This document shows, piece by piece, positions 1 through 36,087 of a DNA stretch of 64,000 nt. The notes beneath the pieces are model-generated. The model made no database searches and was not told the origin of the DNA. It saw only the letters and a program-made list of their open reading frames with translations. Each line of letters begins with the position of its first letter. Position 1 is the first letter of the stretch. The stretch lies in assembly GCF_044647545.1 (NCBI RefSeq), contig NZ_CP172818.1, one strand, 5' to 3'. This stretch comes from Escherichia coli (lineage in GTDB: Bacteria > Pseudomonadota > Gammaproteobacteria > Enterobacterales > Enterobacteriaceae). A program made the position numbers and the translations under genes.

Positions 1-541
1 CTTGCGCATAATAAGCGCGTGATGCTTCGGTAAATTGCCCCAGACACAGTTCTTCAAAAATAATCTGATTAATTTTTGCCCGTTCATCCGCTTCAGGAAT
101 AAGACAGTTGATGGAAAATTGTTCCGTCAGCCGCCCGCGATAAAAATCCTGTTCCATGGTGTAACGTGTACCCAGCAGCGCCACACGAGTCATTCCTGCC
201 CCGGTAATTGCACGTCCAGTGGCATCCGCTATGTGTAAGAAAGGCAGAGAGCAACGAGACTCAATGGCATCCGCCACTTTGTGCATCGTATTGGTGCATA
301 ACACAATACCTTCTGCGCCCGCCCGCTGTAAGCCAAGCGCCGCCTCAGCCAGAATATCCCCGGTTTTGTCCCACTCACCGCGACGCTGGCACTCTTCTAT
401 TTCATGAAAATCGACGCTATGTAGCAGCACTTGCGCAGAGTGAAGCCCACCAAGCCGCTGTTTAATGCCTTCATTTATCAGACGATAGTAAGGAATAGTG
501 GATTCCCAGCTCATTCCTCCCAGCAAACCAATTGTTTTCAT
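1..541 (-). CDS. ygeA: Asp/Glu/hydantoin racemase family protein, 3' end lies beyond window start (partial)
   Basis: Reverse-strand translation from ATG at 541 gives [32 protein letters not shown]..., recognisable as the YgeA racemase family; no stop before window edge, so absent from the ORF track. Confidence 0.8.
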
Positions 542-626
542 TCCTCTCTCCTGATGTGTGTTACCGCAACAAGGCTGAATAAGGAACGAGACAAACGCCT
601 CAACGGCCAGGTGCCTAATCTCTATT

Positions 627-663
627 AACGAAAAAAGGGCCGGATGTACAGCACATCCGGCCC
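627..663 (-). terminator. Rho-independent terminator downstream of araE
   Basis: Inverted repeat gggccggatgt/acatccggccc (637-663) followed on the minus strand by a T-run (revcomp of aaaaaag at 631-636). Confidence 0.6.
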
Positions 664-669
664 GTGAAA

Positions 670-2088
670 TCAGACGCCGATATTTCTCAACTTTTCGCCT
701 GCCATCAGTTTGCGCTCGATATGTTCCAGCGTGACATTTTTGGTTTCCGGAATGAGCCAGAAAGTAATGCCCACAAACGCAATGTTCAACGCAGTGTAGA
801 GCCAGAACGTACCGGCAGCGCCAATGCTATCAAGCAGTGTCAGGAAGGTCGCGCCGATAATCATATTCGACACCCAGTTTGTCGTCGTCGAACAGGTGAT
901 GCCAAAATCGCGGCATTTCAGCGGCTGAATCTCAGAGCACAGGATCCACACCACTGGCGCGGCGCTCATCGCATAACCGGCAATACACATCATCGTCATG
1001 CCAACAGAGAGCCAGGACAAGCCACTGGAAGCCGTACCGTTATCAAACTGCATCAGGCAATAGCCCAGCACCAGAGTGCCTAACGCCATCACGCTGAAAC
1101 CAATTTTCAGAGCCGGCTTACGCCCTGCTTTATCTACCGTAAAGACCGCAATGAAGGTAGCGAACATAAAGGTCAGCCCCACGACCAGAGTCGCAATCAT
1201 CTGTTGTTCTGTGGTCGTAAAGCCCGCCATTTTGAAGATACGTGGCGCGTAGTACATGATGATGTTCATACCGGTAAACTGCTGCATCGCCTGCAACAAC
1301 ATACCGAGAAACACAGCACGACGGACGTTACGGTTGATCTTAAACAGTGCCCAACCGCCCTGTTTTAACTTCAGGCTTTCACGAATTTCGTTGAGTTCTT
1401 CTCGCGCTTTTTCCGACGTATCGCGCAGCATACGCAACACTTCTTCCGCCTCAATATGACGCCCCTTTTCCGCCAGCCAGCGCGGGCTATTTGGCAGGAA
1501 GACAACCAGAATAATCAGCAGGACTGCTGGTAAAGCAAGAACCCCCAACATTGCGCGCCAGTTACCGCTATAACTGAACGCTGTATCGGATAAAAACGCC
1601 AGCACGATGCCGAGTGTGACCATCAACTGGTACATACTGATCATCTTACCGCGAACGTTTTCACTTGCCATTTCAGAAAGATACAGAGGAGCGGTGTAAG
1701 ACGCGATCCCGACAGCAATGCCCAGCACCACACGAGCGGCGATTAACATCTCTACGCTGGTCGCAAAAGCGGACCCTATAGAACCGAGTACAAACAGGAT
1801 GGCCCCCGCCATCAGGCTGTATTTACGCCCCAGGCGGAACGACAGCCAACCATTAAACAGCGCACCAATTGCTGCGCCGAGCATCATGCTACTAACCACC
1901 CATTCCTGCAAACGGCTGGTCAGCACAAAGTGATCGGTAATGAACGGCAAGGCTCCGGCGATTACGCCGATATCAAGACCAAATAACAATCCTGCGACCG
2001 CAGCAGCTACCGAAACAAACATATTCATACGCCGCGTATCCCGCAAAGAACGTGGCGTTAAAGCAGATTCCGTATTGATAGTAACCAT
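670..2088 (-). CDS. araE: Arabinose:H+ symporter (MFS sugar porter), 472 aa
   Basis: ORF 670..2193; the recognised AraE N-terminus [30 protein letters not shown] begins at the internal ATG at 2088; upstream in-frame extension judged non-coding. Confidence 0.92.
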
Positions 2089-2402
2089 TTTTTCCTGCCA
2101 GCAGAGAGTAAGACATAGTGAAAAAATACGTGAACAATTCACACAGGTGTCAGGTCGGAAATAGCATAAATATGGATTAAATTGCTGCGACATGTCGTTA
2201 TGTGATGGATATTACAATTTTCAAATTAAGTTGAATAATTGAGATTATTATTAACCAACTAATTTTAAAGCAGATAAAATTCATAAAGTTCATTAATTGA
2301 TAATTGATATGGATTATTTCATAACCATGATATGGATTATGATGATCTACAGGTATAAAAAACCCTGCCATGCGGCAGGGTCATAAAAGTAAGAAGAATG
2401 GA

Positions 2403-3164
2403 TTAACGAGCCAGCCAACCGCCATCCACGGCAATGGTATAACCATTCACATAATCTGAAGCACTGGAGGCAAGAAACACTACCGGCCCCATCAGGTCAC
2501 TCGGCAGTCCCCAACGGCCAGCTGGAATGCGGTCGAGAATTTCCGCGCTACGTTGTTCATCTGCCCGTAGTTGTTGAGTATTGTTGGTTGCCATGTAACC
2601 CGGAGCTATCGCATTAACATTAATGTTGTGTTTAGCCCATTCATTCGCCATCAATCGTGTCACGCCCATCACGCCGCTTTTTGATGCGGTATAAGAAGGC
2701 ACACGGATCCCGCCCTGGAAGGAGAGCATTGACGCGATATTGATAATCTTGCCGCCATTGCCTTGCGCGATAAAGTGTTTCGCCGCTGCCTGAGACATGA
2801 AGAATACGCTCTTGATATTCAGGTTCATGACATCGTCCCAGTCTTTTTCGCTGAACTCGAGAGCATCTTCGCGCCGAATCAATCCGGCGTTATTCACCAG
2901 GATATCAATATGACCAAACTCAGCTACCGCGCGATCCAGCAGTGCTGGAATGCCATCAATCTTTCTCAGATCGGCGGTCAGGCTTAAAAAACGACGCCCC
3001 AGCGCCGTGACCTGCTTGATGGTTTCAGTCGGTTCAACGATGTTAATGCCAACAATGTCACAGCCCGCTTGCGCCAGCCCCAACGCCATCCCCTGGCCCA
3101 GTCCAGTATCACAACCAGTGACGACCGCAACTTTACCTTCGAGAGAAAATGCACTTAAAATCAT
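2403..3164 (-). CDS. kduD: 2-dehydro-3-deoxy-D-gluconate 5-dehydrogenase (SDR family)
   Basis: 253 aa ORF with N-terminal GxxxGxG Rossmann motif (VVTGCDTGLGQG) and the YxxxK SDR catalytic motif; matches KduD. Confidence 0.92.
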   Translation of the reverse strand: MILSAFSLEGKVAVVTGCDTGLGQGMALGLAQAGCDIVGINIVEPTETIKQVTALGRRFLSLTADLRKIDGIPALLDRAVAEFGHIDILVNNAGLIRREDALEFSEKDWDDVMNLNIKSVFFMSQAAAKHFIAQGNGGKIINIASMLSFQGGIRVPSYTASKSGVMGVTRLMANEWAKHNINVNAIAPGYMATNNTQQLRADEQRSAEILDRIPAGRWGLPSDLMGPVVFLASSASDYVNGYTIAVDGGWLAR

Positions 3165-3193
3165 AACAATACCTTATTCGTTTATGCCCACAA

Positions 3194-4030
3194 CTAGCGC
3201 AAATCTTTAACGGCCACATGGTCCATATCATCAAAGACCTGGTTTTCACCGACCATGCCCCAGATAAAGGTATAAGCTTTGGTTCCGACACCGGAATGGA
3301 TCGACCAGCTCGGGGAGATCACCGCCTGCTCGTTATGCATCACAATATGACGCGTTTCTTGCGGCTGCCCCATCATGTGGAAAACGCAGGCGTCATCATC
3401 CATATTGAAATAGAAATAAACTTCCATCCGGCGCTCGTGGGTGTGACACGGCATGGTGTTCCACAAGTTACCCGGAGCCAGCTCCGTCATCCCCATACTC
3501 AATTGGCAGGTTTCCAGTACATCCGGGACAAAATATTTGTTAATCGTGCGACGGTTACTGGTGAGGTTATCGCCTAACGTGACTGGAGATACTTCGTCCG
3601 GTGTGACTTTTTTGGTGGGATACGTCGTATGCGCAGGTGCGCAATTGTAATAAAACTTCGCCGGAGTAGCGGTATCAATACTGGCAAAGACAACTTCTTT
3701 TGCGCCTTTACCAACATACAGGGCTTCGCGGTGACCGATTTCATAGCATTGACCATCGACGGTAATCGTACCGGCACCGCCAATATTGATAACACCTAAC
3801 TCGCGACGTTCCAGGAAATAGCTTACGCCGAGTTGTTTACCAACTTCCCCGCCAACGGAAACCGTTTTAGTTACCGGCATAATGCCGCCAACAATAATAC
3901 GGTCAATGTGGCTGTAAACCATGGTGTACTCATCGGCGACAAATACCTTTTCAACTAAAAATTCATTGCGCAGCCCCTGGGTATCCAGCGTTTTTGCATG
4001 CGCACTGTGGATGCTCTGTCTTACGTCCAC
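3194..4030 (-). CDS. kduI: 5-dehydro-4-deoxy-D-glucuronate isomerase
   Basis: 278 aa ORF immediately upstream of kduD on the same strand; sequence recognised as KduI (cupin fold). Confidence 0.9.
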
Positions 4031-4316
4031 ATCAACCTCCGATAATCAGTGAAGCGTGAAAATAGAAAACGATAGTGAAACACTGTTTCGTTTTCTCTAT
4101 AAGGGGATGATATGCCCACGGGATAGGGTTTTCAATTAAAAATAAAACAATGTTTCATTTTTAAGTTAAGGACTGAAAAAAGTGCAGTGTCGATCACGAA
4201 TATGTCATGAGAATGGAAAAATCAGGGAGCCCTGAAAATGTATGTCGACTCGCCAGCCACCATTATTCAACAGATTGATGACGGCTGATATTTATCGGTA
4301 AGGAGGAAATGCAGAG

Positions 4317-5501
4317 CTATTCGTCACGTTCAATGGTCAATGCCACGCCCTGGCCCCCGCCGATACAAAGCGTAGCCAGTCCTTTGCGGGCATTACGTTT
4401 CACCATTTCATGAACCAGAGAAACGAGGATTCGGCAACCGGAAGCGCCTATTGGGTGACCGAGTGCGATCGCGCCACCATTGACATTGACCCGACGCTCA
4501 TCCCATTCAAGCATCTTGCCAACCGAAAGCGCCTGTGCAGCAAACGCTTCATTAGCCTCGATAAGATCGACATCAGCCAACTGCCAGCCAACACGCTCCA
4601 GGCAACGGCGGGTCGCATACACCGGCGCAATTCCCATCAATGCCGGATCTACACCAACGCTGGCAAATGCGCGGATGCGGGCCAGCACGGGTAAATTCAA
4701 CGCTCGTGCTTTGGCTTCGCTCATCATCATTACTGCAGCTGCGCCATCGTTTATGGATGATGCATTACCCGCTGTCACAGAGCCGAGACTATCAAATGAA
4801 GGATTTAAACGGGCTAAGCCTTCTGCACTGGCGTCAGTGCGTGGCTGTTCATCGGTATCTACAACCAACGTCTGACCGTTACTTTGGGTCATTACCGGGA
4901 CGATCTCATCTTTAAATCGTCCGGCGTCAATCGCCGCTCGCGCTTTTTGTTGCGAGCTAAGTGCGTAAGCATCCTGCAACTGACGGCTGATGCCATATTC
5001 GCGAGCCAGATTTTCGGCGGTGACACCAATATGATAATCATTGAAGGCATCCCACAACCCATCATGCACAAGACTGTCAACCAACTGGCTATTGCCAAGC
5101 TGTGCACCGGTGCGGCTATCAGTCAGAACATGTGGTGCGCGGCTCATGTTTTCCTGGCCACCGGCGATGACAATATCAGCCTCGCCACACTGTATCGCCT
5201 GAGTAGCCAGATGCAGTGCTTTAAGCCCGGAACCGCAAACGTCATTAATCGTGATTGCAGAAACGCTATTAGGAAGACCACCTTTAATAGCCGATTGCCT
5301 TGCCGGATTCTGCCCTGCCCCTGCAGTCAACACCTGACCAAGAATTACTTCATCCACCGCATATGCAGGAACGCCGGTACGTTCTATTAACGCTTTCACG
5401 ACCAGACTACCAAGTTCCACAGCGGAATGACCCGCTAACGCACCACGAAAGCAGCCGATAGGTGTCCGTAACGCCCCGACAATCACAACGTCTTTCATCA
5501 C
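4317..5501 (-). CDS. yqeF: Acetyl-CoA C-acetyltransferase (thiolase II family)
   Basis: 394 aa ORF with thiolase signatures (N-terminal VVIVGALRTPIG, C-terminal GLATLCIGGGQGVA); true start may be the second Met. Confidence 0.9.
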   Translation of the reverse strand: MMKDVVIVGALRTPIGCFRGALAGHSAVELGSLVVKALIERTGVPAYAVDEVILGQVLTAGAGQNPARQSAIKGGLPNSVSAITINDVCGSGLKALHLATQAIQCGEADIVIAGGQENMSRAPHVLTDSRTGAQLGNSQLVDSLVHDGLWDAFNDYHIGVTAENLAREYGISRQLQDAYALSSQQKARAAIDAGRFKDEIVPVMTQSNGQTLVVDTDEQPRTDASAEGLARLNPSFDSLGSVTAGNASSINDGAAAVMMMSEAKARALNLPVLARIRAFASVGVDPALMGIAPVYATRRCLERVGWQLADVDLIEANEAFAAQALSVGKMLEWDERRVNVNGGAIALGHPIGASGCRILVSLVHEMVKRNARKGLATLCIGGGQGVALTIERDE

Positions 5502-5752
5502 AACCTCGCACCAATTAACAGTGCAATAGTAAATGATTGTTAATCACAGTTATCTTAATTGTTTAAAAAAAGTGATTTTTATCACAAAGGAAATACGCCT
5601 GACCAGCGGTCAGAGACATAACTGGCACGTAAGGTTTGCAACCACTAACCCACCAATAGAGAGGTAGAAAGGGCGTTAATCTCCCATACTTAACCTGGTT
5701 TATGGTAAATTGCCCTCCATTTTGTTTAATTTGTAGATGATACGTTCAGATA

Positions 5753-6982
5753 ATGTCTAATATTTGGTCAAAAGAAGAAACTCTGTGGAGTTTCGCGCTC
5801 TACGGCACAGCCGTTGGTGCAGGCACGCTCTTCCTTCCTATTCAGTTAGGTTCGGCAGGGGCTGTGGTCCTGTTTATTACTGCTCTGGTCGCCTGGCCTT
5901 TAACATATTGGCCACATAAAGCCTTATGCCAGTTCATCCTCTCATCAAAAACATCAGCAGGTGAAGGGATAACGGGCGCAGTAACACACTACTATGGCAA
6001 GAAGATTGGTAATCTGATTACCACGCTGTACTTCATCGCCTTTTTTGTCGTCGTGTTGATATATGCAGTGGCAATTACCAACTCACTTACAGAACAGCTG
6101 GCAAAGCATATGGTTATTGATCTTCGCATCCGTATGCTAGTGAGTCTGGGTGTTGTATTAATCCTGAATCTCATTTTTCTGATGGGACGCCATGCCACTA
6201 TTCGGGTAATGGGATTTTTGGTATTCCCATTGATTGCCTATTTCTTATTTCTTTCTATTTACCTGGTCGGTAGTTGGCAACCTGATCTATTAACAACCCA
6301 GGTAGAGTTCAATCAGAATACCCTTCACCAGATATGGATATCGATTCCCGTGATGGTTTTCGCCTTTAGCCATACGCCCATTATTTCTACGTTTGCCATA
6401 GACAGACGTGAAAAATATGGCGAACATGCTATGGATAAATGCAAAAAAATTATGAAAGTCGCTTATCTCATCATCTGCATAAGTGTACTGTTCTTTGTCT
6501 TTAGCTGCCTGCTTTCTATTCCACCTTCGTATATTGAAGCGGCTAAAGAAGAAGGGGTTACCATTTTATCGGCGCTTTCTATGCTGCCGAACGCCCCAGC
6601 ATGGTTGTCAATTTCCGGGATTATTGTCGCAGTAGTTGCGATGTCGAAATCATTCCTGGGTACGTACTTTGGCGTTATTGAAGGTGCCACGGAGGTCGTC
6701 AAAACAACACTACAGCAGGTTGGTGTAAAGAAAAGTCGTGCATTTAACCGCGCACTATCAATTATGTTGGTATCGCTCATTACCTTCATTGTTTGTTGCA
6801 TTAACCCGAACGCGATTTCGATGATTTACGCGATCAGCGGCCCGCTCATTGCCATGATACTTTTCATCATGCCTACGCTGTCAACATATCTCATCCCGGC
6901 GCTTAAACCCTGGCGTTCCATCGGAAATCTGATTACGCTGATCGTGGGTATCCTGTGCGTATCGGTAATGTTCTTTAGCTAA
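5753..6982 (+). CDS. yqeG: Putative hydroxy/aromatic amino acid permease (HAAAP family, SdaC/TdcC-like)
   Basis: 409 aa highly hydrophobic multi-TM ORF; matches YqeG. Confidence 0.88.
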   Translation: MSNIWSKEETLWSFALYGTAVGAGTLFLPIQLGSAGAVVLFITALVAWPLTYWPHKALCQFILSSKTSAGEGITGAVTHYYGKKIGNLITTLYFIAFFVVVLIYAVAITNSLTEQLAKHMVIDLRIRMLVSLGVVLILNLIFLMGRHATIRVMGFLVFPLIAYFLFLSIYLVGSWQPDLLTTQVEFNQNTLHQIWISIPVMVFAFSHTPIISTFAIDRREKYGEHAMDKCKKIMKVAYLIICISVLFFVFSCLLSIPPSYIEAAKEEGVTILSALSMLPNAPAWLSISGIIVAVVAMSKSFLGTYFGVIEGATEVVKTTLQQVGVKKSRAFNRALSIMLVSLITFIVCCINPNAISMIYAISGPLIAMILFIMPTLSTYLIPALKPWRSIGNLITLIVGILCVSVMFFS

Positions 6983-6992
6983 TATCCGTTGT

Positions 6993-7036
6993 GAATGGTT
7001 CAAAATTGCAAAAATTTTGAACCATTCCAGTTTTCA
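6993..7036 (+). terminator. Rho-independent terminator after yqeG
   Basis: Near-perfect inverted repeat gaatggttcaaaatt / aattttgaaccattc separated by gcaaa, followed by cagttttcat T-run. Confidence 0.7.
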
Positions 7037-7441
7037 TAATGTTCATTTGTTATTATTCCGCTCTATCACTTCTCTCGTCATATCCTAGTATTATCAGTTA
7101 GTTAAACAAACAAAGAGATCTGAACATCTTAAATAAGACTATTTAAGATGCATAACTTAGATTCGCAAGATATCTTCTGGTCATTCAAAAACAATTTGCG
7201 ATATAGATATTCTTATACCATGAGATAGTTATCTGGACCGCTCTCAACCATGCAAGATTAAATCAGTGAAACATAATCATATTTGATAACGAGAAATGCA
7301 TTTTTAAATGCCTTACTCAGAATTATAGCAAATACAGATTAATCGCAATTTTTCCCGGCAAAATTACAAAATCATGGTGTATTGACATCATCAATAACCA
7401 ATGAAATTATGCAATTATATACGGATAGGGAGGTTCTTAAC

Positions 7442-8074
7442 ATGGGGCTTTGTAGTCGTTATAAAAGTCTTACATGCAATAGTTGCTCAATGCATTGCCA
7501 AATAATGCCAGAAGAGTCACCGCGTTTGCAGTATTGCGCAAACTCGTGTTTTTGTATGTGGCCCGAAGAAAGTTCATATTTTAATCGTGGTGTGGTGGAA
7601 GGTATCTTAACAAAAAACCACAATGCGAGATTAAGCGGATATATTTTTGTCGATTTTTCAGTAAGCTTTTTACGTCTATTCCTTGAAAAAGACTGGATTG
7701 ACTATCTTGCAAGTACTGACATGGGGATTGTTTTAGTCAGCGACCGAAATATGCAATCGTTAGCTAACTACTGGCGAAAACACAACTCTGCAATATCTGC
7801 TGTCATATATAATGATGATGGTCTTGATGTTGCCAATGAAAAGATCAGACAACTATTTATTGGTCGTTATTTATCATTTACCAGAGGGAACACATTAACT
7901 CAGATGGAATTCACCATAATGGGATATATGGTTTCTGGTTATAATCCATATCAGATTGCTGAAGTTCTGGATATGGATATCCGTAGCATCTACGCGTACA
8001 AGCAACGAATCGAAAAGAGAATGGGTGGTAAAATCAACGAGTTATTTATTCGTTCACATTCGGTCCAACATTGA
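7442..8074 (+). CDS. yqeH: LuxR-family HTH transcriptional regulator (ETT2 island)
   Basis: ORF 7382..8074 begins with TTG; the better start is ATG at 7442, preceded by a GGGAGG Shine-Dalgarno. C-terminal LuxR-type HTH (TQMEFTIMGYMVSGYNPYQIAEVLDMDIRSIYAYKQRIEKRMG). AT-rich codon usage. Confidence 0.8.
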   Translation: MGLCSRYKSLTCNSCSMHCQIMPEESPRLQYCANSCFCMWPEESSYFNRGVVEGILTKNHNARLSGYIFVDFSVSFLRLFLEKDWIDYLASTDMGIVLVSDRNMQSLANYWRKHNSAISAVIYNDDGLDVANEKIRQLFIGRYLSFTRGNTLTQMEFTIMGYMVSGYNPYQIAEVLDMDIRSIYAYKQRIEKRMGGKINELFIRSHSVQH

Positions 8075-8407
8075 TACTCAACAATCTGCCAGAATCATAC
8101 TCTGCTTATACGGGCATCTATTGAAATGCCCGTATTTTACAAATAAGCAGTAACCCCAAGAGTAAATAACATGGTATTTAAAACCATCATACGAAAAATT
8201 CAGAAGCATTACGAAATATGAATTTACAAACAATAGTGGCATAAATGTTAATCATGTTAATTTACGTAAAGTTTTACGTTGCGACATTAAAGCGTCATTT
8301 CAATCATTATGATAAATATAAAATTAATATATATTTATGTCGTAAATACCAATATACTTAGCAAACTATGTGATTTCCATTTCGATTGATTTAGTGTCTA
8401 TTGACGT

Positions 8408-9217
8408 ATGTACTGGATTATTAACGATAATATCGAGTTCTGGCCTGAGCACCGAAAATTAATATCGGTACATAACGCCGATCTTAACGTCGTTCTGACA
8501 ACGCCAGCCAGTCGTTGTTTATCACTTCTACTTGAAGCTTTTCCTGATGTGGTTGCACAACAAGATTTTTTCACCAGAGTCTGGGAAGAAGAAGGTATGC
8601 GTGTGCCAACTAACACGTTATATCAGAACATATCCATTATCAGACGCGGATTTCGCGCTGTTGGTGATACCACCCACTCGCTTATTGCAACCGTGCCGAG
8701 AAGAGGATTCAAGATTCATAATGACATTAACATACAAAATCATGCAATAAACTCTTCAACAGACGCACATACACACAATGCCCCACCTGCCGTAAAAGGT
8801 AATGCGGGGTACAAAGAGAGCATTGGTGGCGCAAACAATTTCAATAACAAAATCCTCAAACATATAAAAAGTTATCTAATTATGTTGAGCATATTTGCTA
8901 TAGGCGTATATTCTGCACATTGGCTATGGAATAATAATCAACCGAAGCCATTCTTCAAGGATTACAAGACTGTTGCGGAAATTAATGGCTGCCATTTTAA
9001 TGTGACAGAAGATACAATTGATGGGTTGAAAGAGTTCGATAAATATAAGACACGGATACTGGATTCGGGGATTAACTGTAAAAAATATCCGTGGTTATAC
9101 TTCCCTCTTGCAAAATCCTCACCAGGGATGATTGTTATGGCATGCAATAAAAACTATAACCAACATGAAGTGGCAGGCTGTTTAACCCTGTCTTACCGTG
9201 AGGCTAATCGTGATTGA
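8408..9217 (+). CDS. yqeI: ToxR/MarT-like membrane-anchored winged-helix (OmpR/PhoB-type) transcriptional regulator
   Basis: 269 aa ORF; N-terminal region resembles a trans_reg_C DNA-binding domain (YQNISIIRRGF...IATVPRRGFKI), followed by one predicted TM helix (IMLSIFAIGVYSAHWLW) and a C-terminal domain. Confidence 0.8.
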   Translation: MYWIINDNIEFWPEHRKLISVHNADLNVVLTTPASRCLSLLLEAFPDVVAQQDFFTRVWEEEGMRVPTNTLYQNISIIRRGFRAVGDTTHSLIATVPRRGFKIHNDINIQNHAINSSTDAHTHNAPPAVKGNAGYKESIGGANNFNNKILKHIKSYLIMLSIFAIGVYSAHWLWNNNQPKPFFKDYKTVAEINGCHFNVTEDTIDGLKEFDKYKTRILDSGINCKKYPWLYFPLAKSSPGMIVMACNKNYNQHEVAGCLTLSYREANRD

Positions 9218-9632
9218 TTATAAAAAAAACTTATTATTTATTTTAGTTTTTATCAGTGGGTTTATTCTCTTCATTGTTTACTCTTATACTGCAGAAAAAA
9301 TGATATATAATGAAACATGCACTGCAAATTGGGTAATTTTTAATGACAAGGGGCGAGCAAATCTTACCATCGACTTTATGTATAACCAAAAAAATAAAAC
9401 AGGAACTGTTGCGTTGAGCGGAACCTGGCAACAAGGTAACAGAGAAAGTAAGTCAATACGGCGAAATATTGAATACACATGGATTGAAAACTATGACACA
9501 GCCCATTTAACATCAAAGAAAGTTAATAAATTTGAGATCATGGATCAAGTCGATGATGATAGACTTGCAGAACTTATTCCTGATTTTTATGTCTTTCCAG
9601 AAAAAAGTGTAAGCTATAATATACTAAAGTAA
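9198..9632 (+). CDS. yqeJ: Small membrane-anchored protein overlapping the 3' end of yqeI (possible ToxS/FidL-like partner)
   Basis: 144 aa ORF from GTG at 9198, overlapping yqeI by 20 nt; N-terminal TM helix (LLFILVFISGFILFIVYSY). Start codon uncertain (alternative ATG downstream). Confidence 0.6.
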   Translation: MRLIVIDYKKNLLFILVFISGFILFIVYSYTAEKMIYNETCTANWVIFNDKGRANLTIDFMYNQKNKTGTVALSGTWQQGNRESKSIRRNIEYTWIENYDTAHLTSKKVNKFEIMDQVDDDRLAELIPDFYVFPEKSVSYNILK

Positions 9633-9840
9633 GGTAAGCATGCTTTTATTTTGAGTATTGGTAACAGAGCAATAATGCATTGTACAAGGTAAACTTAAAT
9701 AGATAACAAAAAGATGGAACCTCGCTAATCATAAAACAATAAAATTAAATATGCTTGTAGTATATGCCAGTATAAAGCATCAAAGTTTTGATCAACATCT
9801 TTCATTTTAGATATCACCTTGCAATGTAAAATATCATGTA

Positions 9841-10266
9841 TCAACAACATCTGGTGCAAATCCATGAGTCGAACTCAACATTCATCTTAGCTCTATTATT
9901 ATTCCTTCGTACAGTCGATGTAAACAATACAGAAAGAGGATTATTAAGAACCAGTTTACTTAGAGAATCAATAGAGGAAAGGACTAACGTTTCTTTAAAA
10001 GAATTGATTTCATCATCTGTTAAACTAAACTCATCATTGACAGATCGTGAGATATAACTGTTTTTAACTTTACTCTTTACGTTGACTTTACTGACAGAAT
10101 TAACATTCACATATCTTGAATTTAGTACCCATGATGTTGTTTGCGTGAGAACCTTCTCAGCATTAAGGAATTTTTTTAACGGAATCCTTGGTTTCTTTTT
10201 CGAGTCCGAATTTACAATATCATGCATATAGACCATTTCATGAATCTGCGAAAACTCAATGTCCAT
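9841..10266 (-). CDS. yqeK: ETT2 island protein of unknown function
   Basis: ORF 9841..10278 begins with GTG; ATG at 10266 (MDIEFSQ...) with a GAGGT SD gives 141 aa; very AT-rich, Asn/Ser/Lys-rich. Confidence 0.65.
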
Positions 10267-10513
10267 TATATACCTCACATTTTTACCGTGACTCGATGTT
10301 ACTGTTCAATAATCACCTTCCATCAATACTAAATTTAATACCCCTAATGTGCCGATAACAAATATAGTCATTCTACGTAACGTCTCCATAAGGTGATAAC
10401 CTTGATCAAATGAATTTCGAAAATAATAAAGGAAATCTTTTAGATTTTTCACAAATAAAGTTATTTATTTACCAATATCATTTCGATTCACACTATTATC
10501 TTTTTTTAAAAAT

Positions 10514-10601
10514 AAAAAAAAAAATAATTATTAAATAAAAAAAAAAAAATAATAAAAAAAAAAAAAAAAAAAAGAAATTTTAAAAAAAAAAAAAAAAAAA
10601 A
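10514..10601. repeat. Cluster of long poly(A) homopolymer tracts (about 12, 13, 20 and 20 nt)
   Basis: Directly read: A-runs at about 10514-10525, 10537-10549, 10554-10573 and 10582-10601 in the yqeK-ygeF intergenic region. Confidence 0.95.
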
Positions 10602-10669
10602 GGTGATATTTGACATTATCAGAAGCTGCGAATTCGGATTTTGCTCTAATCAAATGAGAGAAATGTAAA

Positions 10670-11161
10670 ATGAAGCCACGAAATATTAATAATAGCCTAC
10701 CACTGCAACCATTAGTTCCTGATCAGGAGAACAAAAATAAGAAAAATGAAGAGAAATACGTGAATCCAGTTAAAATTACGATGAGGTCTGGTTTAAATTA
10801 TATTGAACAAGAATCTCTTGAAGGAAAATATCTAACACATGATTTGTCAATAAAGATAGCGGATATTTCTGAAGAAATAATTCAGCAAGCAATATTATCG
10901 GCTATGAGCATATATAAATTTCCGATAACAGATGATTTAATGAGTATGGCTACAAATGAACTCATAAAACTGGCCAAAATAGAGAATAATTTAGACCTGA
11001 ATAAATTCTCTACTATATGTACCGACGTTCTATCCCCCCTCGTCACCAGACATAATAAAGAAAAAAAACCAGACGACTTACTACCCTTCGCAAAAATCCC
11101 TTTTTTAATTTTCATCGAAAAAATGGAAATTGATAATATGAATCCAGGCCATGCACATTAA
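10670..11161 (+). CDS. ygeF: ETT2 island protein of unknown function
   Basis: 163 aa ORF starting just downstream of the poly(A) cluster; AT-rich; corresponds by position to ygeF. Confidence 0.6.
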   Translation: MKPRNINNSLPLQPLVPDQENKNKKNEEKYVNPVKITMRSGLNYIEQESLEGKYLTHDLSIKIADISEEIIQQAILSAMSIYKFPITDDLMSMATNELIKLAKIENNLDLNKFSTICTDVLSPLVTRHNKEKKPDDLLPFAKIPFLIFIEKMEIDNMNPGHAH

Positions 11162-24216: not shown

Positions 24217-25995
24217 TTATGTGTTTAACAACTCATATTTCTTAATCTTGCGATAGAGCGTAGCAATGCCGATGCCCAGTTCATCAGCAACTTCCTTCTT
24301 GCTGTTATGACGTGAAAGCGCCTCGCGGATCATTTGCTTTTCCATCTCCTCCAGCGCCGTGCCGCCCGCATCATCGAGTGACAGGTGCGCCTCACTGACC
24401 TCTGTTACATCACTTTGCTCCGTTGTGCCATTATTCAGCAGATTTGGTGGCAATAGCGTGCTGTCGATAACTTCACCTGAAGGAACCACGTTAACCAGAT
24501 ATTCCATCAAATTGCTTAACTCGCGCAGGTTTCCGGGCCAACGATGCTTACGCAATATTTCGACGACATCCGGAGCAATGCCAGGATAAACCGATCCCAG
24601 ACGACGGGTATGCAGATGTAAAAAGTAATGCACCAGTAATTCAATATCTTCCTGACGTTCACGCAGCGGTGGAAGAGTTATCGGGATAACATTAAGTCGG
24701 TAGAAGAGATCTTCGCGGAATTTACCTTCGGCAATGAACTGGGCCAAATTCTGATTAGTTGCAGAAATGATGCGGATGTCGACTTGTATTGGGCTACTGG
24801 CACCAATCGGCAGAATTTCACGCGCCTCAATAGCGCGCAGTAATTTAGCCTGCAACATTAATGGCATATCACCAATTTCATCGAGAAACAGCGTGCCCGT
24901 ATTCGCCGCCTGAATCAACCCTGTTTTACCGTTGGCAGAAGCGCCAGTAAATGCGCCTTTAACATAACCGAACAGTTCGCTCTCCAGAAGCTGTTCCGGA
25001 ATCGCGGCACAGTTGATAGCAATAAAGGGTTTATTCCGTCTTCCGCTCAACTTATGGATTGCACGGGCGACGACTTCTTTACCTGTGCCGCTTTCACCAA
25101 CCACCATAACGCTGGATGGGCTGGGTGCAATACGGCTAATGAGTCGTTTTAATTGCCGCATAACACGGCACTCGCCAACCAATTGTTCAATATGCGGTTC
25201 ATCAGGTGCATTTGCTACAGAAAAACTGGTATGCGATTGGTGAAACGCCATTAAAAATAGTTGTCGGCCCTGGATGTTATGCAACTGACCAATGATTAAT
25301 TCACTTTTATCATCCCACGAAACAATATGTTGCATATGACCATGGGTAAAATTACTCTCAAATGTTAATGGTCTGAAACGAACAGGTTTTCCAATAATAT
25401 TATTTTGTACAACACCGAGTGTTTTTAAAGCTGTCTGATTAACAAATTGAACACGATTATCAGCATCAACCACTAACACGCCCTGATCCATATTATCGAT
25501 CATGGTCGCGAATATTTTACTGATGTTATCTCCTGGTCCCTGATCCTCCAGAAGTTTAGAAACAAAAATGGTGGATATATGGCGAACGTAATCAGAAAAT
25601 TCGCGTAAATTATCACTAATATGCTCTTGTTGCTCGTGGGTAACGGCAATCAAACTTATCACTCCAACACAACGATCCTGTAAAATGACAGGCGTACCCA
25701 GAAATGCTTTTTCGCGGCAATTTTCTTTACTATCGCAACCTTCACAAAGGGGATCGAAGCGAGACTGTGTCACAACTTTTTCAGTTTTCGTTTCCAGGAC
25801 GTGGCGGAGCAGGCGTGAGTTGCCGCTCAACTGGCGACCAAGAAACTTCCCATACGCGCCCGTTCCGGCGACGCGACACAAGTTTTCATCAACGATCTCA
25901 ACCTCAAGCTGCAAAACGCTGGCAAGCATTCTGGCAAAACGCTGAATTGTCGGTTGAATTTGCATCAATACTGACTGCGTAGTAGCAAGCTCCAT
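24217..25995 (-). CDS. ygeV: Sigma-54-dependent transcriptional activator (sensory N-terminus + AAA+ + Fis-type HTH)
   Basis: 592 aa; Walker A (GESGTGKE), GAFTGA motif (YVKGAFTGASANGKTG) and C-terminal HTH, typical of bacterial enhancer-binding proteins. Confidence 0.9.
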   Translation of the reverse strand: MELATTQSVLMQIQPTIQRFARMLASVLQLEVEIVDENLCRVAGTGAYGKFLGRQLSGNSRLLRHVLETKTEKVVTQSRFDPLCEGCDSKENCREKAFLGTPVILQDRCVGVISLIAVTHEQQEHISDNLREFSDYVRHISTIFVSKLLEDQGPGDNISKIFATMIDNMDQGVLVVDADNRVQFVNQTALKTLGVVQNNIIGKPVRFRPLTFESNFTHGHMQHIVSWDDKSELIIGQLHNIQGRQLFLMAFHQSHTSFSVANAPDEPHIEQLVGECRVMRQLKRLISRIAPSPSSVMVVGESGTGKEVVARAIHKLSGRRNKPFIAINCAAIPEQLLESELFGYVKGAFTGASANGKTGLIQAANTGTLFLDEIGDMPLMLQAKLLRAIEAREILPIGASSPIQVDIRIISATNQNLAQFIAEGKFREDLFYRLNVIPITLPPLRERQEDIELLVHYFLHLHTRRLGSVYPGIAPDVVEILRKHRWPGNLRELSNLMEYLVNVVPSGEVIDSTLLPPNLLNNGTTEQSDVTEVSEAHLSLDDAGGTALEEMEKQMIREALSRHNSKKEVADELGIGIATLYRKIKKYELLNT

Positions 25996-26364
25996 AGCTT
26001 TACCTTCCAGACTTACTTAAAAGTCGATCATTGAAGACGTTGATGGTTCATAGATCATGATGATATTAACTCAGGCGAAATTGGCTTTGATAAAAACATA
26101 AGATTTTTATCACTTTCTAATGAAATTATGGAAGAGATATCACATTTCTATATCAATATGAGAATTACGGCGGTGAGTTTATCAAACTGAAGAGAGATCG
26201 CCTGTCCCTTTATCTTATTTCTGATACTTAGCAGCAAATAAATAACGCGATAAAAAAAGCCAAACGTTTTCGTATTTTACAAACAACCGGAAGCTGGCAT
26301 CAATTTGTGATCAACCCCACACATTATCCGTCAAATTAGTCTTTTGCAGCCCCGTGGATAATTC

Positions 26365-26380
26365 TGGCACACTTATTGTT
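26365..26380 (+). promoter_or_regulatory. Candidate sigma-54 (-24/-12) promoter upstream of ygeW
   Basis: TGGCAC-acttA-TTGTT resembles TGGCAC-N5-TTGCA with one mismatch at the -12 GC; about 90 nt upstream of ygeW and divergent from ygeV. Confidence 0.25.
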
Positions 26381-26470
26381 AGTCCCAGGTATAGCTGTGA
26401 AAACACCAATCACTTTGGCAAGTCACAGTGAAATAAACCACTTTGCCTGTCATTCCACTACCGGGACTTT

Positions 26471-27661
26471 ATGATGAAAACTGTTAATGAGCTGATTAAG
26501 GATATCAATTCGCTGACCTCTCACCTTCACGAGAAAGATTTTTTGTTAACGTGGGAACAGACGCCAGATGAACTGAAACAAGTACTGGACGTTGCCGCAG
26601 CATTAAAAGCACTGCGTGCTGAAAACATCTCAACCAAAGTCTTTAATAGTGGATTAGGTATTTCCGTATTCCGCGACAACTCCACCCGTACCCGCTTCTC
26701 TTATGCTTCCGCGCTTAACCTGCTCGGCCTTGCACAGCAAGATCTCGACGAAGGCAAATCACAAATCGCTCACGGCGAAACCGTGCGTGAAACCGCCAAT
26801 ATGATCTCCTTCTGCGCCGACGCTATTGGTATTCGCGACGATATGTATCTGGGCGCAGGCAACGCCTATATGCGTGAAGTTGGCGCTGCACTTGATGACG
26901 GTTACAAGCAGGGTGTGCTGCCGCAACGTCCGGCTTTAGTGAACCTGCAATGCGATATTGACCACCCGACTCAGTCAATGGCTGACCTGGCATGGTTACG
27001 TGAACACTTTGGTTCACTGGAAAACCTGAAAGGTAAAAAAATCGCCATGACCTGGGCCTACTCCCCAAGCTATGGCAAACCGCTCTCTGTACCACAAGGC
27101 ATCATCGGTCTGATGACTCGCTTCGGTATGGATGTCACCCTGGCCCATCCGGAAGGCTACGACCTGATCCCGGATGTCGTTGAAGTCGCTAAAAACAATG
27201 CTAAAGCCTCCGGCGGTAGCTTCCGTCAGGTCACCAGCATGGAAGAAGCCTTCAAAGACGCAGACATCGTTTATCCGAAGTCATGGGCACCTTACAAAGT
27301 GATGGAAGAGCGTACTGAATTGCTGCGTGCGAACGATCACGAAGGCTTAAAAGCACTGGAAAAACAGTGTCTGGCACAGAACGCGCAACACAAAGACTGG
27401 CATTGTACTGAAGAGATGATGGAACTGACCCGTGATGGCGAAGCCCTGTACATGCACTGCCTGCCAGCTGATATCAGCGGTGTATCCTGCAAAGAAGGTG
27501 AAGTGACTGAAGGCGTATTCGAAAAATACCGTATCGCTACCTACAAAGAAGCCAGCTGGAAGCCTTATATCATCGCCGCGATGATCCTGTCCCGTAAATA
27601 CGCCAAACCAGGTGCACTGCTCGAGCAACTGCTGAAAGAAGCGCAAGAACGCGTGAAATAA
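26471..27661 (+). CDS. ygeW: Carbamoyltransferase of the ATCase/OTCase superfamily, substrate unknown
   Basis: 396 aa; transcarbamylase carbamoyl-phosphate-binding motif STRTR and HCLP motif present; matches YgeW. Confidence 0.88.
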   Translation: MMKTVNELIKDINSLTSHLHEKDFLLTWEQTPDELKQVLDVAAALKALRAENISTKVFNSGLGISVFRDNSTRTRFSYASALNLLGLAQQDLDEGKSQIAHGETVRETANMISFCADAIGIRDDMYLGAGNAYMREVGAALDDGYKQGVLPQRPALVNLQCDIDHPTQSMADLAWLREHFGSLENLKGKKIAMTWAYSPSYGKPLSVPQGIIGLMTRFGMDVTLAHPEGYDLIPDVVEVAKNNAKASGGSFRQVTSMEEAFKDADIVYPKSWAPYKVMEERTELLRANDHEGLKALEKQCLAQNAQHKDWHCTEEMMELTRDGEALYMHCLPADISGVSCKEGEVTEGVFEKYRIATYKEASWKPYIIAAMILSRKYAKPGALLEQLLKEAQERVK

Positions 27662-34313: not shown

Positions 34314-35084
34314 CTAATTCACAAATCTGCGCGCGATTGCAGGATGTTCTTGTATATCGCCCAGCCAGATTGCCTCTACGTTGTGTTGTTGCAGCGGTTG
34401 AAGGAGCTCGCTTTGCGCAATCGCATTCTCACATTGAGAAAAACGGTTAATGAACCAGACTCGCCGACAACCTTGCGGTACGTTTTTAAACGCCCCCTGA
34501 GGGTGGCGAACCAGCGCAACGAGATCGCTCAGTTGCAAGGGTGCATCAGGTGTTAACCCAGTAATATCAGCAAACTGCGACCAGCGATGGACATTTTCTG
34601 TGCTCACTTTCGCACCCAAAATATGTCCTCCCATCACAGCAATCACGCAGCAACTGCTTTTAGGTATGCAAGGTTCGTGCTCATCAGGCGCTTTTAACGG
34701 CATTCCACGCGAGCCATCTGCTTCAATGAGAATTACGTCACACTCTGGTCGTTGTACCAGTGCATCAATCGCTTCTGGCGTAAATCCCTGCACTTTTCCC
34801 TGATTCGCTTTCCAGCTGTGAAAACAAAATGAAATGGGGGATATAAAAGACGCATGAGGAAGCATGGCGGGATCACGACAGAAAACCACGGGCCAGTGAG
34901 ATGTTGGCATAAACATATGTGTCGTCGTAGTGATTAATACACGCCTGCCGCTCGCCTGGAACAGTTCTGCCAGCCAAAAAAGCAAGCTGGTTTTCCCCCC
35001 AGCACCAACAACAGAAATCACAGTGGGACGTTTCTGCGCGCCTAAATCAATGAATAATGCCGATGGGTCAATTATACTTTTCAC
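34314..35084 (-). CDS. yqeC: Selenium-dependent hydroxylase accessory protein, predicted P-loop NTPase
   Basis: 256 aa; Walker A-like VVGAGGKTS near N-terminus; matches YqeC. Confidence 0.85.
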   Translation of the reverse strand: MKSIIDPSALFIDLGAQKRPTVISVVGAGGKTSLLFWLAELFQASGRRVLITTTTHMFMPTSHWPVVFCRDPAMLPHASFISPISFCFHSWKANQGKVQGFTPEAIDALVQRPECDVILIEADGSRGMPLKAPDEHEPCIPKSSCCVIAVMGGHILGAKVSTENVHRWSQFADITGLTPDAPLQLSDLVALVRHPQGAFKNVPQGCRRVWFINRFSQCENAIAQSELLQPLQQHNVEAIWLGDIQEHPAIARRFVN

Positions 35085-35187
35085 GCGTCTTTATGGACCT
35101 CTCTGGGATAAATTATCCCCAACTTAATCCATCAGGAAGTAACGCAATTATCAGGCGTTATTAGCCCCTATAAATAATGGAACCACT

Positions 35188-35766
35188 ATGTCAGCCATCG
35201 ACTGTATAATTACCGCTGCCGGATTATCATCAAGAATGGGGCAATGGAAAATGATGTTACCCTGGCAACAGGGAACAATTCTTGATGCAAGTATCAAAAA
35301 TGCGTTGCAGTTTTGTAGCCGAATTATTTTAGTCACCGGCTATCGTGGTAATGAACTGCACGAACGTTATGCGAACCAGAGTAATATCACTATTATCCAC
35401 AACCCAGATTATGCGCAGGGTTTACTGACATCAGTAAAGGCCGCAGTACCCGCGGTGCAAACAGAACATTGTTTTCTCACCCACGGTGACATGCCAACCC
35501 TCACCATCGATATTTTTAGAAAAATCTGGCCGTTACGTAATGATGGCGCAATACTGCCACTCCATAATGGCATCCCCGGCCATCCGATTTTAGTGTCAAA
35601 ACCATGCCTGATGCAGGCAATCCAGCGACCCAATGTCACCAATATGCGTCAGGCACTCCTTATGGGAGAACATTATTCCGTCGAAATAGAAAATGCAGAA
35701 ATAATTTTAGATATTGATACTCCTGACGACTTTATTACAGCGAAGAAAAGGTATACTGAAATTTAG
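35188..35766 (+). CDS. mocA: Molybdenum cofactor cytidylyltransferase
   Basis: 192 aa (ygfJ); MobA-like nucleotidyltransferase fold (AIDCIITAAGLSSRMG). Confidence 0.88.
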   Translation: MSAIDCIITAAGLSSRMGQWKMMLPWQQGTILDASIKNALQFCSRIILVTGYRGNELHERYANQSNITIIHNPDYAQGLLTSVKAAVPAVQTEHCFLTHGDMPTLTIDIFRKIWPLRNDGAILPLHNGIPGHPILVSKPCLMQAIQRPNVTNMRQALLMGEHYSVEIENAEIILDIDTPDDFITAKKRYTEI

Positions 35767-36087
35767 AAAACGTAGTTAAACGATTGCGTTCAAATATTTA
35801 ACCCCTCCTGTACTCTTTATCATAATGATAAGGAATCACTGATTTTGAGAAAAGAGAAAAAGTGATAAATGGGCTGGCAATAATAATTTTCAGGAGTGAT
35901 TTTAATTCTCATTTGGCACCTGTGAGTTCATTCACAAAAAGCCATTAAGTTTCGAGCCGCCTCACATTTTTTTATATTTCCCGCCAAACCTGGCAAGAGT
36001 GGTGCGATTGTTGCTCTATCCCCCTAAACCACCGGATTTCTCAACACCGGTCACTCAATGATATCTGTATAAGCTAAGGAGAGGGTT

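Follow-up and report, generated by a model that had tools for sequence, protein, structure and literature searches.

The ETT2 island of Escherichia coli adjoins glyU in the yqeG-glyU interval, with no tRNA-derived repeat found at its distal boundary

ETT2 among described genomic islands

Classical tRNA islands, such as the High-Pathogenicity Island at an asn tRNA and the PAIs of E. coli 536, carry a P4-type integrase and flanking direct repeats. In integrase-mediated islands of this kind, the 3′ part of the tRNA gene holds one of the junctions, a tyrosine integrase sits beside the tRNA, and a direct repeat of the tRNA 3′ end is found at the distal boundary. SPI-1 of Salmonella is located between fhlA and mutS, not beside a tRNA, and has neither an integrase nor flanking repeats. 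The E. coli island ETT2 encodes an SPI-1-like, distantly related secretion system (PMC4700944), and its G+C content is 36.9% against a chromosome average of 50.8% (PMC3977695). ETT2 has been described as "adjacent to" or "next to" glyU (PMC3977695, PMC11068852, PMC2808357), while another report words it as "integrated into" glyU (PMC4700944).

We analyzed a 64-kb stretch of E. coli DNA (hereafter the window), in which the G+C content goes down to 0.28–0.38 between approximately 7000 and 16500. The single tRNA gene that ARAGORN identified in the window is tRNA-Gly(CCC), glyU, whose 3′ end points to lower coordinates, i.e., towards the island. A megablast search of 5426 complete E. coli genomes returned strain FDAARGOS_497 with a 100% match to window positions 4000–9000, and the record of this strain annotates kduI, yqeF, yqeG, yqeH, and yqeI in the matching region. 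In the full locus of FDAARGOS_497 (L083), yqeG is followed by a complete ETT2 type III secretion cluster and then by ygeQ, tRNA-Gly, and actS. Identity to this intact locus is 99.5% for window positions 5700–16493 and 100% for 17825–20200. Between these two segments, 16.9 kb of the secretion core has been replaced by IS2 in the window, with breakpoints at window position 16493, corresponding to L083 10935, and window position 17825, corresponding to L083 27880 (Table 1).

Location, gene content, and base composition all agree with ETT2 as it is known from E. coli, and nothing essential differs here. The island lies between yqeG and glyU, contains yqeH, ygeH, pbl, and ygeK to ygeQ as homologues of the intact ETT2, within the known range of genes from yqeH through ygeQ, and has a G+C content of 0.36 (0.34 without IS2) compared with about 0.50–0.53 in the flanking genes. 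On these comparisons, we assign the island in the window to an IS2-truncated, K-12-like form of the decayed ETT2 type III secretion island. This truncated form is the arrangement of K-12, where IS2-associated loss of the secretion core is the pattern of attrition.

Like the High-Pathogenicity Island and the PAIs of E. coli 536, ETT2 brings low-G+C, virulence-type cargo to the 3′ side of a tRNA gene, but unlike them it bears no sign of mobility. With SPI-1 it shares the character of an old, fixed island devoid of a mobility module and att repeats. It differs from SPI-1, which is intact in Salmonella, in being mostly degraded and in its position beside glyU. We consider it probable that ETT2 is an old, integrase-less, SPI-1-like island in the yqeG-glyU interval, situated beside the tRNA, and that no att repeat exists or is to be expected. 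Such an explanation is ordinary and largely known. ETT2 itself has already been described in detail, and the result makes that description somewhat more precise. The base-level junctions and the absence of repeats were not found stated in the literature examined.

Table 1. Positions of genes, junctions, and sequence elements at the ETT2 locus, in window coordinates
Feature	Position	Strand	Basis or remark
yqeF, acetyl-CoA acetyltransferase, core flank gene outside the island	4317..5501	-	ORF; annotation of the 100% identical record
yqeG, amino acid permease, core gene on the distal side of the island	5753..6982	+	ORF; annotation
Terminator-like hairpin, 15-bp stem, just past the yqeG stop	6993..7027	+	conserved in all aligned Escherichia sequences
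Perfect palindrome ATCTTAAATA-AGAC-TATTTAAGAT (10-4-10, 24 bp)	7126..7149		7 bp outside the island junction, on the flank side
Distal (left) island junction	7156..7157		homology to island-free genomes ends at 7153-7156, uncertainty of a few bases
ETT2 island remnant, 11.9 kb, yqeH to truncated ygeQ	7157..19052		missing as a block from 1179/5426 E. coli genomes
Left endpoint of the second, independent deletion in L003	7204 (7203/7204)		L003 keeps 7157-7203
Promoter-like site upstream of yqeH: TTGACA, 17 nt, AATTAT, with TG	7382..7410	+	consensus match only
yqeH, LuxR-type regulator, first island gene	7442..8074	+	annotation from the identical record; ATG at 7442
IS2	16494..17824	-	annotation; breakpoints relative to FDAARGOS_497
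Truncated ygeQ, glycoside hydrolase family 15, last island gene	17825..18961	-	annotation
tRNA-proximal (right) island junction	19052..19053		homology to island-free genomes resumes at 19053
Spacer, 142 bp, between island and glyU	19053..19194		kept in island-free E. coli
glyU, tRNA-Gly(CCC)	19195..19268	-	ARAGORN
actS (ygeR), core gene on the far side of glyU	19347..20099	-	annotation

Island junctions and the search for a glyU copy

About 30% of the genomes matching in the megablast search lose homology to the window near positions 7153–7157. In one of the island-free genomes, AVS0366 (L001), yqeG is followed by 316 bp and then by tRNA-Gly and actS. The alignment with this genome runs up to window position 7156 (L001 9157) and continues from window position 19053 at the very next base (L001 9158), with no filler. 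A 1-kb probe across the empty site was contiguous in 1179 of the 5426 complete E. coli genomes, ATCC 25922 and Nissle 1917 among them, and the distance between yqeG and glyU is 316 bp in these 1179 genomes. In the island-bearing strains listed, which include O157, O111, and K-12 derivatives, the probe is interrupted at the empty-site junction. The ETT2-free genomes recognizable by strain belong to phylogroup B2. The empty-site alignment thus delimits the island to window positions 7157–19052. The reference for these junctions is the island-free state in E. coli; should that state result from deletion, the junctions represent deletion endpoints and might not be the points of insertion.

The initial annotation had placed the distal boundary in the yqeG-yqeH intergenic region, and the comparison with island-free genomes bears this out at the resolution of single bases: the interval 6983–7442 corresponds to this intergenic region and, by the alignment, contains the distal edge of ETT2 between 7156 and 7157. 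The initial annotation had also considered that the true boundary could lie outside yqeF and yqeG, near 4100–4300, an idea with which the somewhat low G+C content of yqeG (0.44) would agree. However, both genes are retained in the island-free E. coli genomes, which rules out a boundary beyond them. We also scanned one genome per species for YqeG, obtaining 80 loci with 73–99% amino-acid identity from genera including Escherichia, Citrobacter, Salmonella, Enterobacter, Klebsiella, and Kluyvera, with E. fergusonii not among them. YqeF adjoins yqeG in 75 of the 80 loci of other species and KduI is nearby in 57, and the order kduI-yqeF-yqeG is kept across many genera of Enterobacteriaceae, which argues against a boundary near 4100–4300. 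We regard a boundary there as scarcely credible.

At the other end, the present junction lies 142 bp downstream of the 3′ end of glyU and outside the tRNA gene, unlike the junctions of integrase-mediated tRNA islands. The premise of an integration at the glyU 3′ end is therefore not supported by this junction, and the 142-bp spacer is kept in island-free E. coli, which lack all other parts of the island. Since the spacer separates the island from glyU, a tRNA-derived repeat is not expected. On the basis of these junctions, ETT2 adjoins glyU and is not in it; "next to" would be the appropriate wording, and an att repeat is not worth seeking. The spacer is partly kept in Escherichia sp. MOD1-EC7003 and missing in Escherichia sp. 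E1V33, in E. albertii, and in other genera. It is AT-rich like the island (GC 0.34), and we found no terminator in it and no fold better than those of shuffled sequences (z = 0.56).

The glyU copy was searched for by Smith-Waterman alignment, using the 74-nt glyU gene and its 3′ 45 nt as queries in both orientations. The five targets were window positions 6983–7442, 4100–4300, 4000–8500, and 1–19150, and the full-length ETT2 of FDAARGOS_497 (L083 1401–29200), and the significance of the alignment scores was judged against shuffled queries. No copy of glyU above chance was found in any of the five targets. The best local matches extended over merely 6–14 nt, and all scores fell within the null distribution of the shuffled queries. 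In the interval 6983–7442, the score was 14 compared with a null of 14.6 ± 1.9, with 74% of the shuffles reaching at least the observed score; in 4100–4300, the best score of 12 against a null of 13.8 likewise gave no tRNA copy. In a power test with implanted copies, 15 nt were recovered with up to 2 substitutions, 20 nt with up to 4, and 25 nt with up to 6, which sets the detection limit at about 80% identity, and a copy that has decayed further would escape. The failure to find a tRNA-derived repeat by eye at the distal boundary is thereby confirmed by local alignment on both strands, and an imperfect copy of 15–25 nt near 7000–7400 or 4100–4300, which would have contradicted it, is not present at about 80% identity or more. 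ETT2 in the window differs in this respect from the integrase-mediated islands described above, as it has no distal tRNA repeat at or above that level of identity.

The other hallmarks of site-specific integration are likewise missing in ETT2, in contrast to integrase-mediated tRNA islands. Between the 200-bp zones around the two junctions (±100 bp), we found no significant direct or inverted repeat, the best score being 20 against a null of 18.4–18.6 ± 2.6–2.7 and being equaled or exceeded by 28–30% of the shuffles, and wider zones gave none either. The intact ETT2 of FDAARGOS_497 has 34 annotated CDS between yqeG and glyU, none of which is an integrase or recombinase, and the mobility genes annotated in the island of the window are those of IS2 only. 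The microhomology at the island-free junction amounts to a weak TACA/TGCA similarity, which is uninformative. The best-matching pair of the two junction zones, the palindrome region at 7123–7144 and positions 19010–19032, was considered as a flanking repeat and rejected, as the match is not significant and, with offsets of 12 bp and 20 bp from the junctions, suits neither att sites nor a repeat-mediated deletion.

The yqeG-glyU interval in relatives and the age of the island

The gene order yqeG, glyU on the minus strand, and actS is kept in Huaxiibacter, Lelliottia, Leclercia, Silvania, Enterobacter, and Pseudenterobacter, where the yqeG-glyU interval holds 0.9–8.8 kb of cargo unrelated to ETT2. 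In five of these loci, the larger ORFs nearest glyU were scanned; their products include a flagellin, an ABC ATPase, LacY, a FadL-type porin, and LysR-type and other regulators, as well as a flavodoxin-like protein, a LysE exporter, and an enoyl reductase, and none of them is an integrase. Of 13 comparison loci, 11 share a fully identical (100%) glyU gene, across at least six genera. Similarity to E. coli in the other genera sets in at the tRNA 3′ end or no more than about 20 bases away. Judging from these loci, the yqeG-glyU interval behaves as a plastic zone across the family, with no sign of integrase-driven insertion. The content of the interval might have been swapped without site-specific integration, through illegitimate recombination or through homologous recombination that uses the conserved flanks as anchors. 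One flank of such a replacement hotspot would be a tRNA gene that is identical across at least six genera.

Within the genus Escherichia, the locus takes several forms. In Escherichia sp. MOD1-EC7003 (L003), whose flanks are about 92–93% identical to those of E. coli, only 286 bp separate yqeG from glyU. The junction (L003 11400–11520) joins approximately window position 7203 to 19125, so that 47 bp of the island left end are kept and 72 bp of the 142-bp spacer are absent. Because the left end of the island is retained, this empty-looking site is a secondary deletion. Escherichia sp. E1V33 (L004:11231–16111) carries a short, divergent ETT2 remnant with yqeH-yqeI-yqeJ and ygeH, which are 70–78% identical to their E. 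coli counterparts, while the identity of the glyU-actS flank is about 92%; no spacer stands between the remnant and the tRNA 3′ end. The type strain of E. albertii (L082) keeps homologues of window positions 7116–7215 and 18687–19035, and thereby of both island ends, and intact ETT2 at glyU has been reported in other E. albertii strains (Ooka et al. 2015, PMC4700944).

From these comparisons, we infer that ETT2 was already present before E. coli, E. albertii, and other Escherichia lineages separated. The ETT2 remnants in E. albertii and other Escherichia, together with the differing endpoints of the empty sites, favor by parsimony an old island that has been lost repeatedly. We lean towards an island older than these species, with the ETT2-free site of E. 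coli as one more, clean deletion, a reading of the ancestral state by parsimony across these three Escherichia comparisons. ETT2 would accordingly have been acquired before the species separated, and its absence from about one fifth of E. coli would be due to secondary deletion more likely than to an ancestral empty site.

The opposite history would take the island-free site as ancestral, with ETT2 inserted between the bases now at 7156 and 19053 by illegitimate recombination once the island-free lineage had branched off, and spread later to other Escherichia by homologous recombination in the flanks. The island-free junction is indeed clean, having neither an island remnant nor filler, and the right end of ETT2 homology between E. 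coli and E. albertii (around window position 19035) falls near the same point. An ancestrally ETT2-free phylogroup B2 is also a published view, that of Ren et al. 2004 as cited in PMC7058095. Against this history, E. albertii (PMC4700944), two non-coli Escherichia, and a divergent species representative named E. coli all have ETT2 or its remnants at the same left junction, and MOD1-EC7003 demonstrates that an island-free site can arise by deletion. The lower identity of the E1V33 remnant relative to its flanks also fits long vertical divergence better than recent spread. We consider an ancestral empty site unlikely. The present results bear on the disagreement between an ancestrally ETT2-free B2 and an acquisition before the split of E. 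coli and E. albertii but do not settle it; they add junction coordinates at single-base resolution and lend some support to an ancient acquisition followed by repeated deletion.

Two observations speak against our preferred reading of an integrase-less island beside the tRNA. The homology of E. coli to E1V33 and to six other genera stops exactly where the tRNA 3′ end lies, as an original tRNA integration would leave it, and the 142-bp spacer, which is specific to Escherichia, shares the AT-richness of the island. ETT2 could have been integrated first by an integrase at the glyU 3′ end, with the integrase lost afterwards, the distal repeat decayed, and the spacer left as the last piece of the island. 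ETT2 might also be old enough for a repeat of 15–20 nt to have dropped below our detection limit. Such a history, however, is at odds with the island-free E. coli, which keep precisely the spacer, with the lack of a tRNA copy and of an annotated integrase reported above, and with the relatives: none of the 13 syntenic loci of other taxa, searched with the whole glyU gene, contains a repeat of it, and there is no sign of glyU serving as an att site in them. Since the island-free site is perhaps a deletion, whose endpoints might not be the insertion points, a decayed att site retains some probability, although a low one, and the reading of ETT2 as an island that adjoins glyU is preferred.

Several further variants of the locus were observed. 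E. coli 74-2 (L084) and FDAARGOS_944 (L085) carry further independent, IS1-associated island deletions, and the deletion in FDAARGOS_944 also takes yqeG and most of yqeF. The glyU position of E. albertii NBRC 107761 (L082:2297–2370) is occupied by a tRNA-Gly(CCC) that differs from E. coli glyU at 19 of 74 bases, with paired changes in the stems, and the DNA on its two sides (262 bp and about 70 bp) is unrelated to E. coli, so that the whole tRNA gene looks as if it had been replaced by a foreign copy. Citrobacter sedlakii and C. amalonaticus (L006 and L008; 11230–21220) have a yqeH homologue with 73–77% amino-acid identity located 1.8 kb beyond yqeG and accompanied by a NicO-type transporter and fimbrial genes. 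In C. amalonaticus the fimbrial genes make up a full chaperone-usher set, and C. sedlakii has homologues of yqeI and yqeJ in addition. No secretion-system genes were found within 10 kb in these two species, and the regulators yqeH-J may be a module separate from the secretion system proper.

Elements in the yqeG-yqeH intergenic region

We aligned the intergenic region from E. coli, two non-coli Escherichia, and E. albertii. The two best-conserved blocks in all aligned Escherichia sequences are the terminator-like hairpin behind yqeG and the region of the palindrome close to the distal junction (Table 1). The palindrome occurs once in the window, and 100 shuffles yielded 0 matches when up to 3 mismatches were allowed. 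It is retained in island-free genomes and was not found in the other genera compared. It is possibly a binding site for a protein. The palindrome may resemble the NsrR-type half-site AAGATGCAT, and no claim is made on this resemblance. A search of 6800–7600 for Rfam families gave merely a chance-level match (E = 0.78).

Taken together, the ETT2-free state as a clean deletion, the yqeG-glyU interval as a flank-anchored, integrase-independent hotspot, and the palindrome as a possible protein-binding site linked to the island edge form a joint reading that is conceivable, at odds somewhat short of even, and that we put forward tentatively. Elsewhere in the window, the G+C content dips further to 0.41–0.44 at around 25000–27000 and 35000–36000, within a stretch of 0.50–0.54.
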